This document shows, piece after piece, positions 3,396-35,008 of a stretch of 41,069 bases of DNA. A program made the translations under genes and the position numbers. Source of the DNA: a virus (Duplodnaviria; Heunggongvirae; Uroviricota; Caudoviricetes); the IMG/VR virus record IMGVR_UViG_2541047748_000013. One strand, written 5' to 3'. Positions within the stretch are counted from its first letter, which is position 1; each line of letters opens with the position of its first letter. Under the pieces are notes generated by a model. It was given only the letters and a program-made list of their open reading frames with translations. It made no database searches and was not told where the DNA came from.

Positions 3396-6300
3396 AACGT
3401 TCTTCCAGAGACTGAATCCGCTCTTTTATCTTATCCATTTCTCTGCGCTGCCATGCTGCCTCGATATAGAATAAGAGATCAGGTCTGACCCCCCATCTAG
3501 ATCCTGCTGGCGTTATTTCAACGCGCTCAATGATGTCTTCCATTACCATCACTGGATTATCATCCTCATCAACAATGATGCTCCCGTCATTATCAGTCAG
3601 CGGCATTTCCCTTTGGCCAGTAATGACGTCATCATATACTGCGGGATAATCGTCATAGCAAAGAAAGGCATAGCGGCATGTTGTGCTTTCTTCTTCCATG
3701 AGTCCGTGAGAAATAAGAACATCACGAAGTTGCTGCGCGATTACACCATGATGTATCCTCGCCCCTTCTTCCCCCTTTATAGCGACAGCGTTCAGCCATT
3801 TATAAGCGATATACCTGACGTCACCCCAGGCATCCAGCAATGCTTCGTCAGGAGAGACCGGCTCTGTCTTTAATGTTCCGTCACTGGTAACCACAGGATT
3901 GGAGCCAAGATAAACTGTCGAGAACCTGTTTCCCGGACCACCAAGAGCATTTACATTATCAAGATAAGGTTTAACATCTCCGTTCTCAAAAAGATGTTCG
4001 AGTGCGTTATATACCGCGCGACGTGGAGTACTGCTTCCGGAACCATGCAACGTTATCATTGCACCATCTGCTGAAGACGTTGTTTCACCGCCGCTAACGA
4101 TTAATCTCTGAGCGGTAACATCATCAGACGGTACTTTCTTCGCAATAATGGCGTAATTACCCTCAAGTTTGACTTCCGCGCGAACTTGTCCTGATGTACC
4201 TGCATGGACAGTCAGTGACTGGACGGCAACATCATCTGTGAAATCAACGGGTACAGGAACCGTCCTCACGCCTGACGTCGACATAAAAGTAGGAAGCGTT
4301 CTGTTAGGAGTGGCTCCGTAGACAAAATCCCTTGAAACAAATTCTTCCTGTTTAATTTTCACCCTGAAACAATACAAATCAGCCGGGTGACCATCGTGAA
4401 CATAAGGATATTTTCTGTTGTTATCCCCTATGCTCCATGGGTTTAGAAAGTCTTCCCCACCGAAAATGTAGTACAGCCAGTTGTCTTTGATACAAACTGA
4501 ACCAACACCAACCGCAGAGTTAACTATTCCGCCCTGATAAATCTGATCAGTAACATTAACCCACTCTACATTATCCAGACTCCACTCATTGACGTTAACT
4601 CTGGTCATAAATGTTCTTGGATAATTTCCTGCATAACGGTTATCAGGTTCTCCTCCTTCCCACTCACCAAATGCGCGCTCACTGCCAAAAATAATCAGCT
4701 CATCGCCAACTTTGGCAAAAGGAAGGTTTGAGTGATGAACATTATTTGGGAAGCGAAGAGAATTCCATGATGTACCTAAATCAGAGCTTCTGTGCAATGA
4801 ACTACCGGGTTGAGTACTTAATGTCCCCCTGGTCGTCAGATACAGAATGCCATCATAATATTTTACACATGGCTCAGATGCATTCGCCTCATATTCTACA
4901 GGTATGCGTCTGCGAACAAAGCTACCAGGAGAACCGAAAGCATCAGAGAAATAGAGTATCCCAAGCTCGCGTGGACCAATATCACCATTATGGTAGCCAA
5001 CAGCAAAACTGTTATCGCTAATCGTCGCAAAACTGTGAATCTCAGTAACAGGAGTGCTTCCGTCAACAAAAGAAGGAATAGTTCCAAGACTGGTTTTTCT
5101 CCATGGTGACGAGTGAAATGATGTACCAAAACTCCAGTATCTACCCTCGTTATTCTGATCCACATCCTGGGTATTTTGCGTCGTAACTGTAAAAGTATTT
5201 TTATCAATAACAGTAGTCACCGTCATATTCCCGGTAACACCTGTAACACCAGAGTTTGAGAAGTTGACAAAATCACCAGCAAATAATCCGTGATCAGTAA
5301 TGCGAATATAAGCGACTTGCTGATTTGCTGCTTTCGTTATACCACCATAAACGCGAAGGCTGCGACTCATTGGGCGATCCCACAACTCTGCAACCTGCAG
5401 TTTATTTCCGCTCACGGTCCGCGTCTCAATTACAGCAAAAAGGCGATTTCTGACAACCCCCATACTCATGCAGTGATAGTTAACTGTGGGATAGTTTTCA
5501 TGTAAATCTGTAAGCCATTCCGGCGTTGTCCAGGTCTTCCCGTCATCTCCTGAGCGAACCCATGCAACATGGAGGTTATTTACACCATGGCGGTCTCCAG
5601 CCATAAAAGGCGCATAGATGACATTGTCATATACAAACGTTTTATCCTGCGTCCAGGCGTTGTACCACGGTGTATCTGTAATTTTAAATAACTCTCCCTG
5701 GATAAAATCTTCAGAAGCATAAAAAAGAGGCTGGCCCGGTATTCTCTCAAATAAAAAACGAGCATTTTTAAATCGACTGACATCCGGAAGAGTTGATACT
5801 TTAAAAGTAAGCCCTAATCCGTCAATTTTATAACCTGGAGATGAGGCTTCAAGGCACGCGCTTATTGCAGTGGAATCGTCATTTATACCATCACCAACAG
5901 CTCCAAAATCTTTGGGGCTAATAGCATCACGCATTTTATCCTGGAACGTTCGGTACACAGCCCCAGAACCATACTGAATAAACCAACCAAAACCACCAAC
6001 AACCCCGGCGATTGCAGCATCGACATAATTACGCATTGAGCGATTATTTACAGCGTCCTGCTCAAATGATGGATCTGCAAGGTTAGAAATTTTGTTTTGC
6101 TTTGCATCGTAATATTTTGCAAGCAAAGATGGTTTCATCAATGCACGTCTGAACCACCCAAAACATTGCTGGATCAGCATCGTCAGGTAGTCAAAGGCAT
6201 CTTCATGCACTTCGGGGAAAAATTTTCCCTGATTGCGAAGGTCTGTCTCCTGCACTACATCAAGCACACGATCTATCGTAATTCGCCATCCAGTAGCAAG

Positions 6301-31341: not shown

Positions 31342-31686
31342 TCAGAACTCTTCGATGTTCCAGCCACCACCTGCTTTCTTTGGTTTAACCGTTACCCCGA
31401 TGATTCGGAACGGATACTGATCTGCGGCGACTTTGGTTTTCACCCTGGCGTCGTCGGTCCAGAAACCTTTCACTTCGTGCAGTTCCATCTCTCCGGTGGC
31501 GAGCATCACAGCGAAATCTGGCGTATAGAACGTGTTGTCAGCTAACCGCAGCTTGATACCCTCGAATCGATACCAGGCGATTTCCCCTGCACGTTTACGC
31601 AGCTCAAGGTGCTGGCAATACGCAGATTCAGTTTTGTTCATCTGGCCTGTTTTGAGTCGACCAAGAGCCTGTATCTGTTTTCTCAT
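31342..31686 (-). CDS. DUF1064-like phage protein (possible nuclease fold)
   Basis: 114 aa; own promoter-like element and operator dyad overlapping the RBS. Confidence 0.5.
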   Translation of the reverse strand: MRKQIQALGRLKTGQMNKTESAYCQHLELRKRAGEIAWYRFEGIKLRLADNTFYTPDFAVMLATGEMELHEVKGFWTDDARVKTKVAADQYPFRIIGVTVKPKKAGGGWNIEEF

Positions 31687-31803: not shown

Positions 31804-32580
31804 TTACTTGATAAATCCTGCCGCCTTTCCCCGCCTGTATTCCTCCATCAGCCACTGCGCCGGTGTTATTCCCCCAAGGGTGGCGGCGTTAGGCATGCAC
31901 CCGAAACTTCGCCCTGGTGGATGGTAAACGTCTCTCCCTGTGTCCGGAGGTGTACTCATGGGCTCTGGCTTTGCCTGTATGCTGATCACCGGATCGGGTA
32001 TCTGCTGTCCGGAAGCCACCTTTTTCGCCCAATCATCGAGCAGCCTGCGCGCGTGTTTCTCAACCTCACTCTCGCTAAGCTGGCGCTGATACATTGCACG
32101 ACGGGTATCACATACGACCCAGTACATAACCGGATGCCGCCACGGGAATCTTTCGGGACCACCAGGATATAAACTTTTTTCCTTGCTGTACCGGTGAAAC
32201 TCCGCCATCACATCGTCAATGGTGACGCCAAGAACCATCTTGCTGTCTTTGCACCACTTGATGAATTGCCCTGGCGACGGCCAGAACGGAGATTCACTGG
32301 CGCGGGCGTGGCGCATACCAGCGTTAACCTGTTCCATTGTAGTGATCCCATTCTCCAGAAACGCAAGCATCCATTGCTTACGGAATTCATTAAGTTTGTT
32401 CTGCTCCCTTATGGTCGAAACGCTTGCAGGAAATGCAGCCTGTAACTGGACAAATAGTTCATTGAAAATTCTAGCAACCTGCTCCTTTTTGCCATTGCTG
32501 TCACGCCGCTCTTCATGCACAGCAACACCATGCTCACGTAAGCGATCGTACTCATTGAGAAGTTCTGGAGTTGATTTCAT
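31804..32580 (-). CDS. P: Replication protein P-like helicase loader
   Basis: Recalled strong similarity to lambda P (ENGITTMEQVNAGMR, PSPGQF). Confidence 0.8.
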   Translation of the reverse strand: MKSTPELLNEYDRLREHGVAVHEERRDSNGKKEQVARIFNELFVQLQAAFPASVSTIREQNKLNEFRKQWMLAFLENGITTMEQVNAGMRHARASESPFWPSPGQFIKWCKDSKMVLGVTIDDVMAEFHRYSKEKSLYPGGPERFPWRHPVMYWVVCDTRRAMYQRQLSESEVEKHARRLLDDWAKKVASGQQIPDPVISIQAKPEPMSTPPDTGRDVYHPPGRSFGCMPNAATLGGITPAQWLMEEYRRGKAAGFIK

Positions 32581-33400
32581 CCCACACCCCTTCTATCCAG
32601 TCAGTGTTATTCCAGTCAAGCTCATCGCTTTTCCCGGCATTTTTTGATTTTCCCCTGATATGATTTACGTGCCTGGCGAATTTTTGTTCCCACTGAACCT
32701 GCGTGAACACTTTGCCCTCAGCCATCCAGTAATCCCGGAATGCAGCAAGTTCAGCAGGTGTAAATTCCGGTTCCGGCAGGGCCGTTCCCCACAGCGCAGC
32801 ACGCCGCCGAAAATCTGGCGACGGTAGCCAGCCATCTGTCATCGGAAATTTCCCGATGGGTTCACTCAGGCCATCCAGAAATTCAGGTTCTGCCACCTGC
32901 AACGGCGTACTGTTCGCTTCACTGGTCGGAGCACCCTCGCACACGTGCGCTATGTGTGGGGTTTTATATATATCTTCCTCTTCCTCTTCCTCTGGTAACT
33001 CCTTTTGTAACGCTGTTGGCGTTACTTTTTGCGTTACTCGTTTTCGATGCTCTGCCACTCTTCTATTCGTAAGTGCACGTTTTTTCGATGATTCTCCATT
33101 ATGTCGCTCAAAGTTTGGAAGAATTAGTTTGCCGTCATGATAAGCAAGCCATCCGACGCTAATGAGGGCGTCAGCAAATCCTGTAATAAAAGCGAGTCTA
33201 TCAAGTACTCCTTTTGTAACGCTGCCAGCGTTACCGTCTATTGTTTGCTGGTCAGCCCATGCCCATATACGAACCAGCTTTCCAAGAACAGCATCTGGAT
33301 CAATACCCAGAATTTCTGCTATCTGAAAAATTTCAGGTTTATCAGGAGTGATAACTTCAACCTTAATCCAGCTGCTTGCCATAGGTTTCCCCTCTTGCAC
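32552..33400 (-). CDS. Replication initiator / replisome organizer (lambda O analogue)
   Basis: N-terminal replisome-organizer-like domain, poly-Glu linker, C-terminal DnaT-like region; iterons inside the coding sequence. Confidence 0.7.
   Translation of the reverse strand: MQEGKPMASSWIKVEVITPDKPEIFQIAEILGIDPDAVLGKLVRIWAWADQQTIDGNAGSVTKGVLDRLAFITGFADALISVGWLAYHDGKLILPNFERHNGESSKKRALTNRRVAEHRKRVTQKVTPTALQKELPEEEEEEDIYKTPHIAHVCEGAPTSEANSTPLQVAEPEFLDGLSEPIGKFPMTDGWLPSPDFRRRAALWGTALPEPEFTPAELAAFRDYWMAEGKVFTQVQWEQKFARHVNHIRGKSKNAGKSDELDWNNTDWIEGVWDEINSRTSQ
32960..33234. repeat. Putative replication origin: paired 19-bp palindromic iterons plus AT-rich tract inside the O-like gene
   Basis: GTAACGCTGTTGGCGTTAC (33007-33025) and GTAACGCTGCCAGCGTTAC (33216-33234), both preceded by CTCCTTTT; extra GCGTTAC at 33031; AT-rich GTTTTATATATATC near 32961. 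Confidence 0.5.
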
Positions 33401-33575
33401 TCTTTAGTGCACAAGCAAATTCATTACGATGGCGGTTGGCGCTATTCATTGCACATTCAACACATGTTCCGTTCAGAACATACCTTTCAGAGAGATGGCC
33501 GTGACGGCACCGCTTTCCTGTGAAATAGCGATTTAACCCGGCTTTTGCGGCCTCCATTCTGGTTACTATCTTCAA
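33363..33575 (-). CDS. Small Cys/His-rich protein in the cII position
   Basis: 64-70 aa, CRHGH...CVEC cluster; overlaps O-like start; weak RBS; low support. Confidence 0.3.
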   Translation of the reverse strand: MKIVTRMEAAKAGLNRYFTGKRCRHGHLSERYVLNGTCVECAMNSANRHRNEFACALKSARGETYGKQLD

Positions 33576-33653
33576 TTTTTCCGCCCCTTTTTGTTATTGA
33601 TATTGGCTATTTTGCACAATTGGAAAATTTGATCAACCAGATTTGGTTTTTTA

Positions 33654-33668
33654 TTACCTTTGAGGTAC
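33654..33668. promoter_or_regulatory. TTACC-N5-GGTAC dyad between cro-like and downstream genes
   Basis: TTACCTTTGAGGTAC, imperfect right arm. Confidence 0.4.
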
Positions 33669-33670
33669 GA

Positions 33671-33701
33671 ATAGATATGAAAAGACCGCCGGGTGGCGGT
33701 C
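33671..33701 (-). terminator. Weak intrinsic terminator after the cro-like gene (tR1-like position)
   Basis: GACCGCC-ACCC-GGCGGTC hairpin followed by TTTTCAT on the minus strand. Confidence 0.3.
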
Positions 33702-33723
33702 TACAGAGGGTTGTAGCTGGATA

Positions 33724-33954
33724 TCATGAGTAGAAGAAGTATGCCAGTTCTGCTTTTGAGCGCAGCCATTGTCTTGTTTTACAGGCTTTAAAAAGCCCAT
33801 TCATCAATACCTTACCTGGCATTTTGCGCTTACCTGTTAAGTGAGTCTGGATATAGTGACTCGTCGTTCCGGCTTCCTGTGCGAAGGCTTCACGCTCATC
33901 CGGAGTAAGTGCAAGCCAGTGCTTTTTGAAATCGAAATGTCCGTTATCGCTCAT
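33724..33954 (-). CDS. Cro-like HTH regulator
   Basis: 76 aa; HTH-like segment (FAQEAGTTSHYIQTHLTGKRKMP); divergent from the repressor gene across an operator-rich 154-bp region. Confidence 0.6.
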   Translation of the reverse strand: MSDNGHFDFKKHWLALTPDEREAFAQEAGTTSHYIQTHLTGKRKMPGKVLMNGLFKACKTRQWLRSKAELAYFFYS

Positions 33955-33990
33955 AGCTATTGCCTGATATTTATTTCAGATAATAAATAT

Positions 33991-34053
33991 TCACCCATAA
34001 GGTAACAAAAATCAAGGATAGTTACCTATGGGGTGCATTTACCTGTTGGGTAA
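33991..34053. promoter_or_regulatory. Tripartite operator in the divergent repressor/cro promoter region
   Basis: Three dyads: TCACCCATAAGGTAA (33991-34005), TTACCTATGGGGTGC (34022-34036), TTACCTGTTGGGTAA (34039-34053). Confidence 0.55.
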
Positions 34054-34108
34054 TATTGCTTTAAATTGAATCATCTACTGATTCATATATGAGGCGATTT
34101 CCCAGAAA

Positions 34109-34693
34109 ATGAAAAGTATCCAGGACGTCCGCAGGCAAAATCTCAACGACTTGATCGACCGTGAATTCAATGGTGTTCAGACGCGGATGGCTGAAAAACT
34201 TGGAACTCAGGCAAATCTGGTAAACCGCTGGGCTCTTGGCAAGAAGGTTATCGGCGACCAGGTTGCACGAAAAATTGAAGCTGCCGCCAATAAACCCCGT
34301 AACTGGCTTGATATTGATCGCTCGCTTTCTCAGGAGGGTTTTCAGCCTGTCGGCCCGAGCGATATAGGTCAGCTGGCGGCTCACAACCTGGAACGCTGGA
34401 TGAGCGAAAGCCGCGACCTTTCAACGCAGGGAAAACTACACCGCGCATCCGGCGTCGCCCAGGTGACAATCAGCCGCCTGTTAAACAATGAGGTCAGCGT
34501 TTCCATTTCCACCCTGGAGAATGTTGCATCCGCATTCGGGCGTCACGGCTATGAATTACTGATTCACCCGCACGACCCTGCGACCATCAACTATGATCGC
34601 TCGCGCTACGCATTGTTACCCGAAACCGAGAAAGCAAAGATCGAAAGTTACATTGAATTTGTCATCAACCAGAACGAAAAAAACAAACAATAA
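34109..34693 (+). CDS. CI-type repressor with tandem HTH domains and no S24 peptidase domain
   Basis: 194 aa; two XRE-like HTH segments; no Ala-Gly/Ser-Lys autocleavage domain visible; short leader. Confidence 0.6.
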   Translation: MKSIQDVRRQNLNDLIDREFNGVQTRMAEKLGTQANLVNRWALGKKVIGDQVARKIEAAANKPRNWLDIDRSLSQEGFQPVGPSDIGQLAAHNLERWMSESRDLSTQGKLHRASGVAQVTISRLLNNEVSVSISTLENVASAFGRHGYELLIHPHDPATINYDRSRYALLPETEKAKIESYIEFVINQNEKNKQ

Positions 34694-34715
34694 AATCATA
34701 TTTTTCAGTAAGTAA

Positions 34716-34738
34716 GCCGCCTTCTGGCGGCTTTTTTA
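34716..34738 (+). terminator. Intrinsic terminator after the repressor gene
   Basis: GCCGCC ttct GGCGGC followed by T6. Confidence 0.6.
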
Positions 34739-34750
34739 TTGCCTATACGA

Positions 34751-34765
34751 TTACCTAACGGGTAA
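34751..34765. promoter_or_regulatory. TTACC-N5-GGTAA dyad upstream of early-left promoter
   Basis: TTACCTAACGGGTAA. Confidence 0.5.
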
Positions 34766-34784
34766 TTTTTTTAACTCATATCTA

Positions 34785-34812
34785 TTGACATCAAACCAGA
34801 TACGCATAATCA
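34785..34812 (+). promoter_or_regulatory. Putative early-left (PL-like) promoter
   Basis: TTGACA at 34785-34790, CATAAT-like -10 around 34805-34812, bracketed by two operator dyads. Confidence 0.45.
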
Positions 34813-34827
34813 TTACCTCAACGGTAA
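34813..34827. promoter_or_regulatory. TTACC-N5-GGTAA dyad just downstream of the PL-like -10
   Basis: TTACCTCAACGGTAA. Confidence 0.5.
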
Positions 34828-34846
34828 CAGACCGAGGTAACAAGTT

Positions 34847-35008
34847 ATGCAGTGGAAAATCATCAACGGTTGGTACTGCGTTACTGCATGCGGATTCATG
34901 AGCTGGAAGTTCCGCACCTTACAGGAAGGCATTAAGTGGGCTTTCGTCAGCAAAGAAGCTCGCGATGTGGCAAACGATAACGAGATATGGGAGGAGGTTA
35001 GCAAATGA
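34847..35008 (+). CDS. Small Trp-rich protein, first gene of early-left operon
   Basis: 53-codon ORF not in supplied track; GAGGT RBS 7 nt upstream; stop overlaps next start (ATGA). Confidence 0.4.
   Translation: MQWKIINGWYCVTACGFMSWKFRTLQEGIKWAFVSKEARDVANDNEIWEEVSK

Follow-up and report, generated by a model that had tools for sequence, protein, structure and literature searches.

Short repeats built on the half-site GTAACGC, set in two clusters inside the replication initiator gene of a temperate podovirus, probably constitute the replication origin of this phage. The genome, IMG/VR record IMGVR_UViG_2541047748_000013, was analysed as one stretch of 41,069 nucleotides (hereafter, the window), and its sequence identifies it as phiV10/epsilon15-like; in nucleotide comparison, a match of 99.8% links the region under study with Escherichia phages vB_EcoP_ZX5 and HEMP4, and one of 97.8% with TL-2011b, all of them temperate podoviruses. 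We estimate at roughly 0.7 the probability that the repeats form a theta-type origin located in the phage's own initiator gene, and every computational test run fits such an origin with a lambda-like layout, which we regard as supported. The gene belongs to the minus-strand early operon:

33382..32552, minus strand: O-like initiator gene, an open reading frame (ORF) of 276 amino acids (aa); Pfam DnaT 1.6e-18; phrog_2509 'replication initiation protein' 2e-129, along the full length

Its start was placed at ATG 33382 from the alignment of homologues, all of which begin MA(S/G)xWIK, and the mechanical ORF start, GTG 33400, was set aside.

The first-pass annotation of this DNA had described two 19-bp palindromic iterons with GTAACGC and GCGTTAC arms and an identical leader, lying about 200 bp apart in the linker-coding part of the gene. 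Both copies are real, being contained in a 28-nt direct repeat (32998-33025 and 33207-33234) whose copies agree in 25 of 28 positions, begin 209 bp apart and both have the leader CTCCTTTT and the core GTAACGC-N5-GCGTTAC. A 27-mer pattern of the repeat, with up to three mismatches allowed, was found in two places only in the window and in none of 100 shuffled sequences. Copy 33216-33234 is a perfect 9+1+9 palindrome and copy 33007-33025 has arms of 7 bp. The repeat unit, however, is not a 19-bp iteron but a 7-bp half-site, GTAACGC, repeated with a 12-bp period in six copies that form two clusters, so that a third exact and a fourth degenerate half-site had been missed:

33216..33234: cluster 1, palindrome GTAACGC-TGCCA-GCGTTAC made of an inverted pair of half-sites with 12-bp spacing, codons G50-T56
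33216, plus-strand reading: half-site GTAACGC
33228, plus-strand reading: half-site GCGTTAC
32995..33037: cluster 2, four half-sites with a 12-bp period, two direct then two inverted, in linker-coding sequence
32995-33001, plus-strand reading: half-site GTAACTC, degenerate
33007, plus-strand reading: half-site GTAACGC
33019, plus-strand reading: half-site GCGTTAC
33031-33037, plus-strand reading: half-site GCGTTAC, exact

Exact GTAACGC occurs at 14 sites in the window, where 3.7 would be expected, and five of the 14 fall within the 230 bp considered here. Paired half-sites (12-bp spacing, at most one mismatch) were found nowhere else in the window, no other promoter region included, and no half-site lies upstream of the initiator gene in this phage. 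As for the location in linker-coding DNA, it holds for cluster 2, which in the structure model codes, together with (CTTCCT)3 and the AT tract described below, for a disordered linker (residues 123-172), but not for cluster 1, which codes for a loop (residues 47-56, with codons 50-56 reading G-N-A-G-S-V-T) of the folded N-terminal domain (N-domain).

The two repeat copies are translated in different frames, as G-N-A-G-S-V-T-K-G-V and V-T-P-T-A-L-Q-K-E-L, and the repeat is therefore one of DNA and not of protein. The comparison with related phages, which the first-pass annotation had suggested, extended this to other genomes. By tblastn, the protein proved to be modular: its N-domain (residues ~4-136) has counterparts of 35-89% identity in phages of Klebsiella, Enterobacter, E. 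coli, Xanthomonas, Pseudomonas, Vibrio, Ralstonia and Salmonella, in which it is joined to varied, unrelated C-terminal domains (C-domains) and accompanied by a P-like loader, a DnaC-like loader or none. Half-sites stand at constant gene positions in about 30 diverged relatives (35-90% aa identity) from Gamma- and Betaproteobacteria and a planctomycete, those keeping the sites belonging to Escherichia, Klebsiella, Enterobacter, Xanthomonas, Pseudomonas, a Pusillimonas (Betaproteobacteria) replicon and a planctomycete chromosome. All relatives with the GTAACGC sequence (the GTAACGC class) carry a palindrome at gene position +149/+161 (site 1) and an array of three to five half-sites at +335..+415 (site 2), often with a further palindrome 19-55 bp upstream of the start codon, beside the ribosome-binding site. 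When counted over 28 non-redundant loci (<90% nucleotide identity), with the gene region taken as -120..+450 of the start codon, exact half-sites numbered 181 in the gene region (11.3/kb) versus 15 in the flanks (0.18/kb), and the spacing between neighbours was 12 bp in 78 cases.

The repeats are under selection at the DNA level: synonymous positions are frozen, and the linker array is kept in two different reading frames. Indeed, across 28 sequences of <90% nucleotide identity the site-1 codons were GGT in 27/28, AAC in 28/28, GCT in 24/28, AGC in 24/24, GTT in 28/28 and ACA in 22/26, with a codon entropy of 0-0.8 bit at these positions, nearly all the remaining conserved residues of the domain lying at about 1-2.4 bit. 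In the window, as in its close relatives, the array of cluster 2 encodes V-T-x, whereas most other lineages read it in the frame of G-N-A. In many homologues, a 12-bp insertion adds one GTAACGC and with it a four-residue 'xxNA' insertion in the protein (GNA-KC-NA-xSVT). The DNA repeat shapes the protein, and not the reverse.

The half-sites also change in concert. In one locus of 45% identity (L053), all five half-sites read GTCACGC, and this replacement of GTAACGC therefore converts Asn51 into His. Epsilon15, SPN1S and their relatives (35-40% identity) have GTCCGC with an 11-bp period, in two clusters about 280 bp apart, the downstream cluster being composed, like that of the window, of two direct followed by two inverted half-sites; in a Vibrio phage the half-site is TGTCACA. 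Residues 103-109, a segment of the basic helix of the protein (window about 33056-33076), are ALTNRRV wherever the half-site is GTAACGC; the GTCACGC and GTCCGC classes have A-x-(D/E)-A-(D/E)-R-(K/Q) there. The segment is a candidate for determining specificity, to be taken as a lead only, the comparison being confounded by phylogeny and comprising few independent classes.

Nucleotide homology to Enterobacter phage BUCT554 and to a Klebsiella phage starts at the beginning of the gene and ends at 32958 and 32973, at the AT tract, and the N-domain and the sites therefore move as one unit, with C-domain and loader varying. Such joint transfer would be expected of an initiator and its cognate origin. 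In the plasmid collection only two matches were found, both in phage-like circular records, which gives no independent evidence of plasmid-type maintenance. As a separate observation, a planctomycete prophage-like region (CP036432, at 7.98 Mb of a 10.8-Mb chromosome; L095, 1501-2208) encodes an N-domain of 58% identity, with an unchanged site-1 palindrome and, after its site-2 array, (GAGAA)5. For a single iteron sequence, such a host range is surprisingly wide.

Beyond the last half-site of cluster 2, three further elements follow in the direction of the gene:

32973..32993, sense (minus) strand: all-purine tract of 21 nt, AGAGGAAGAGGAAGAGGAAGA, beginning 2 nt past the last half-site; proposed part of the unwinding element
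32962..32973: AT tract TTTTATATATAT, 12 bp, with the lowest stability in the gene; proposed first-melting site
32940..32958: inverted repeat CACACGTGCGCTATGTGTG beyond the AT tract, 8 pairs with G-T allowed; it stands where lambda ori has its right-end palindrome

The AT-rich tract and the (CTTCCT)3 repeat noticed at first pass are thus both adjacent to the half-sites, the latter at 32974-32991. The least stable 20-mer of the initiator gene begins at 32962-32963, with a free energy (dG) of -19.4 kcal/mol versus a window mean of -26.8 (standard deviation 2.6), and the 20-mer at 32962 is in the top 0.17% of the window for instability. In 13 of 15 diverse relatives, and whatever the iteron sequence, C(C/T) comes after the last half-site, then a pure-purine run of 21-29 nt on the sense strand, consisting of (GAGGAA)n or (GAGAA)n, and then a short AT-rich stretch. 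Since this tract is translated differently among lineages, as EEEEEE in some and as REEKRRE in others, its constant feature is the DNA. A conservation profile anchored on the purine tract was uninformative past the last half-site, being blurred by the variable 12-bp/23-bp spacing, and the inverted repeat at 32940-32958 is only partially conserved among relatives, its role being uncertain. We suggest, with rather less than even confidence, that this origin would typify a large family of phage origins not described so far, whose half-sites are written both into a surface-loop segment of the initiator's DNA-binding domain and into its linker, so that a gained site or an altered specificity is directly visible in the protein, and in which the fixed polypurine tract is perhaps the single-strand capture element of the initiator. 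An element of this kind would be comparable to the DnaA-trio found beside DnaA boxes. No paper on this origin family was found in the literature outside subscription sources, and no origin is marked at the locus in the annotated public records inspected.

In the full-length AlphaFold model of the initiator (predicted local distance difference test, pLDDT, 72.5), residues 10-90 form a confident helical domain with a terminal beta hairpin, winged-helix-like, followed by a long basic helix (residues 91-118) with invariant H94, G96, K100, R102 and R108, by the disordered linker (residues ~123-172) and by a C-domain of three helices, of the DnaT-type binding single-stranded DNA (ssDNA), at residues ~178-250. 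The assignment of the C-domain comes from Pfam DnaT (PF17948; residues 185-255, at the score listed above) and from a Foldseek match to the DnaT structures 4ou6/6aeq (E 1e-5; TM 0.82-0.92 on the target; 54-59% identity). The same C-domain (window 32552-32850) shares 54-59% of its residues with the ssDNA-binding domain of DnaT from E. coli and Salmonella, and it has the look of a domain taken from a host and joined to an origin-binding module of the phage. The N-domain had no Pfam match even at E<10, and its resemblance in fold to DnaD-type winged helices is weak. Its homologues comprise 7,116 representatives of 50%-identity clusters (full-library phmmer, E<=0.001); among the best 150 of these 7,116 matches, the domain begins at or a few residues from the N-terminus in most, and the protein footprint of site 1, GNAxxV[T/S], is present in 112 of 145 representatives examined. 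At present the initiator domain of such phages and prophages is either unannotated or mislabelled as 'primosomal protein I'.

The name "O-like" used in the first-pass annotation is valid by analogy only, the protein and lambda O not being homologous: no detectable sequence similarity links lambda O to the N-domain of the window, Pfam Phage_rep_O (PF04492) gave no match, and hhalign of the N-domain family profile against lambda O returned a probability of 0.1%. The analogy of layout is closer. In lambda, the ori likewise lies inside the initiator gene, in the linker-coding part between a DNA-binding N-domain and a C-domain interacting with the loader, and a lambda P-family loader gene follows downstream, as here. 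The lambda ori consists of four iterons, AAAAGAAAAAAGAAAAGA, TTATT and then a palindrome (PMC7466680), AAAAGAAAAAAGAAAAGA corresponding to the purine tract of the window. The order of elements is shared, namely dyad-symmetric sites, a purine-rich strand-asymmetric tract and an AT stretch, beyond which the window has an inverted repeat that its relatives keep only in part. On the contrary, the four lambda iterons are 18-19 bp long and about 20-24 bp apart, whereas the window has 7-bp half-sites of mixed orientation with a 12-bp period, and it differs further by a second cluster lying 209 bp upstream within domain-coding sequence, by its DnaT-like C-domain and by a much shorter AT tract. The early statement that the locus mirrors lambda ori with another iteron sequence and spacing is supported by these comparisons, and the broader proposal of an origin embedded in the initiator gene, for which the related phages give good support, fits the conservation, the DNA-level selection, the concerted change, the purine/AT tract and the P-family loader. 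In Shiga toxin (Stx) phages, which have six iterons, the extra iterons add 13 residues to the protein (PMC7466680), whereas in the family of the window each extra half-site adds four.

A mode of action can be proposed along the same lines. The N-module, that is the winged-helix-like domain plus the long basic helix, would bind the half-sites of the array 32995-33037 and of the palindrome 33216-33234, and we infer that the N-domain is the part making contact. The resulting nucleoprotein complex would strain the DNA 2 nt past the last half-site, so that the purine/pyrimidine tract and the AT tract may melt; the DnaT-like C-domain would then hold the opened strand and/or dock the P-like loader, which would in turn bring the host DnaB. 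The palindrome 209 bp upstream may serve as an auxiliary site, either raising the local concentration of the initiator or looping to the core, in the manner assumed for the additional iterons of Stx phages. Binding, melting, loading and the auxiliary-site step are proposed by analogy with lambda (PMC7466680, PMC12663957) and SPP1 (PMC6316719), and the unwinding, the recruitment of the loader and an activation by transcription through the origin are likewise inferred.

Other explanations of the repeats were weighed. The half-sites could be operators, or autoregulatory or handcuffing sites, at which the initiator or another phage regulator, bound inside the gene and just ahead of it, would restrain its transcription or translation or pair DNA copies, and not the place of strand opening. 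Inverted half-iterons of plasmid Rep genes do serve autoregulation and handcuffing, inverted repeats are typical of operators bound by dimers, and the extra palindrome that many relatives have 19-55 bp upstream of the start codon, near the ribosome-binding site, points the same way; an operator role could, moreover, coexist with origin function. However, the window phage has no such upstream site, its main array lies 350-400 bp into the coding sequence, invariably joined to a purine/AT tract for which an operator would have no need, and other promoter regions of the genome are devoid of sites, thus making a purely regulatory function unlikely.

That the sites are bound by something else, either a host factor or a phage protein such as the 70-aa zinc-finger-like ORF at 33575..33363, and serve partition, packaging or defence evasion, is very improbable. 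The 70-aa ORF does accompany the gene in several relatives; but the gene upstream varies among relatives that keep the sites (cII, KilAC antirepressor, Roi, methylases), and the iteron class can differ between phages whose enterobacterial hosts are identical or close relatives, which argues against a host factor. Slightly less credible again is that the repeats are functionless, a by-product of the conserved G-N-A-x-x-V-T protein sequence and of a recombination-prone boundary between N- and C-domain. Site 1 does code for conserved residues, and the nucleotide homology of mosaic relatives ends just past the purine/AT tract; nevertheless, a by-product would not account for the frozen synonymous positions of the site-1 codons, for a linker array conserved in two reading frames, for copies in non-coding DNA upstream of the gene or for the joint switch of all copies in other lineages. 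Just as implausible are RNA or ssDNA hairpins (messenger RNA stability elements, attenuators or terminators of antisense transcripts): a simple scan does flag 33007-33025, which is followed by TTTTT, and 33216-33234 as terminator-like on the plus strand, antisense to the gene, but many half-sites are direct or unpaired at the 12-bp/23-bp register and unable to pair, the stems are short with 4 G-C pairs, and no Rfam family matches.

Some observations weigh against an origin in the initiator gene. No experimental evidence was found for binding, unwinding or initiation by any member of the initiator family. With 12 bp the AT tract is short, and when stability is taken over 40 bp the region ranks no higher than the top 1.5% of unstable DNA. 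The sites lie in the N-domain's own gene, and their co-inheritance with it is not independent evidence that the N-domain binds them; the iteron classes that are independent number only three or four, and the covariation of protein and sites is confounded by phylogeny. The cumulative GC skew has its minimum at 33-35 kb of the window, but this coincides with the switch of transcription direction at the immunity region and proves nothing for the origin: as both fall at 33000-35000, the minimum is assignable to neither. DnaA boxes are not enriched, and none lies within the proposed origin.

Among other replication systems, the origin proposed here has a counterpart in a Rac-like prophage of E. coli 442/2 (MN652886; L013, 1196-1660), labelled 'Rac', whose YdaU carries an N-domain of the window type; GTAACGC sites are present there in front of the gene as well as at sites 1 and 2, with (GAGGAA)3 coming next. 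The Rac module (ydaU-ydaV) has a DnaC-like loader, whereas that of the window is P-like. Ori J (oriJ) of the K-12 Rac prophage was considered as the same origin and rejected, K-12 YdaU having an unrelated DUF1376 N-domain and (A/G)TGTTCAAACA repeats; by hhalign, its match to the initiator family is limited to the C-terminal domain present in some members. Because N-domain and repeats differ, the classical oriJ is an analogue and not the same origin, and the replication modules of 'Rac' prophages are mosaic. Within ydaU of K-12 MG1655 Rac (L014, 3767-4080), we noted (A/G)TGTTCAAACA at 4011, 4045 and 4068 (inverted), in addition to 3767; these repeats of the linker-coding part are candidate iterons of the classical oriJ.

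In iteron plasmids, the initiators (pPS10 RepA, F RepE, R6K pi) are winged-helix binders that occupy direct iterons as monomers and inverted half-iterons as dimers. Like the window, these plasmids use one short recognition sequence in direct and inverted orientation (see the review PMC4980987). Unlike the window, they have their iterons, of about 20 bp with a 22-bp period, outside the rep gene, and the window gives no sign of a monomer/dimer switch. E. coli DnaT (primosomal protein I) acts in PriA-dependent restart and not at an origin, whereas in the initiator of the window the ssDNA-binding domain is fused to a predicted site-specific origin-binding module. As to phages of Gram-positive hosts, oriL of SPP1 lies in gene 38, whose product G38P binds direct repeats in its own gene beside an AT-rich unwinding element, the loader and helicase genes following (PMC6316719). 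No sequence relationship was found between SPP1-type origins and the window, and repeat design and hosts differ.

The genes and signals surrounding the initiator gene are the following:

34109-34693, plus strand: CI-like repressor gene, divergent from the early operon
33980..34008, minus strand: candidate early rightward-type promoter (consensus 9/12) between the CI-like and Cro/cII-like genes; its transcript would cross the origin
33954..33724, minus strand: Cro/cII-like gene
33702-33683, minus strand: intrinsic terminator between the Cro/cII-like gene and the 70-aa ORF
33575..33363, minus strand: 70-aa ORF of unknown function (phrog_1081), overlapping the start of the initiator gene
32580..31804, minus strand: lambda P-family helicase loader gene; Pfam Phage_lambda_P 5e-56; phrog_109 'P-like helicase loader' 1.6e-89
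31342-31686, minus strand: DUF1064 gene, downstream of the loader gene

The start of the loader gene overlaps the end of the initiator gene (32580 versus 32552). The promoter scan gave no more matches than expected by chance, the 9/12 candidate at 33980..34008 included, and no Rfam family was matched in the region. The 70-bp segment bearing the terminator (window 33631-33702; AGACCGCCACCCGGCGGTCT plus a T-run, minus strand) is 97-99% identical in many phiV10-like phages that are otherwise unrelated across the region, and the phiV10 record labels it as a terminator. The 70-aa ORF shows a zinc-finger-like pattern, RCRHGH...GTCVEC, and its counterpart precedes the initiator gene in BUCT554, Klebsiella phage ST11-OXA245phi3.2 and SPN1S; the DUF1064 gene, too, keeps its place in these three phages, even where the loader gene is missing.

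Origins inside initiator genes are textbook knowledge for lambdoid phages, and this concept is not overturned; what is new is a different protein family and a different repeat design, both found again in thousands of uncharacterised phages. For annotation, the rule would be a half-site array, C(C/T), a purine tract of 21-29 nt and a short AT-rich stretch, about 350-420 bp into the gene. The element could serve in building phage-derived replicons, and it bears on research into defence systems by which phage origins are sensed (PMC12663957). If the initiator does bind these sites, the locus would be a natural experiment in which a DNA-binding protein and its sites share nucleotides, so that site and protein co-evolve. 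If confirmed, the finding would provide the origin and the initiator specificity of phiV10/epsilon15-like podoviruses, including serotype-converting phages and those associated with enterohaemorrhagic E. coli, and would extend to thousands of related prophages of Gamma- and Betaproteobacteria and of at least one planctomycete.

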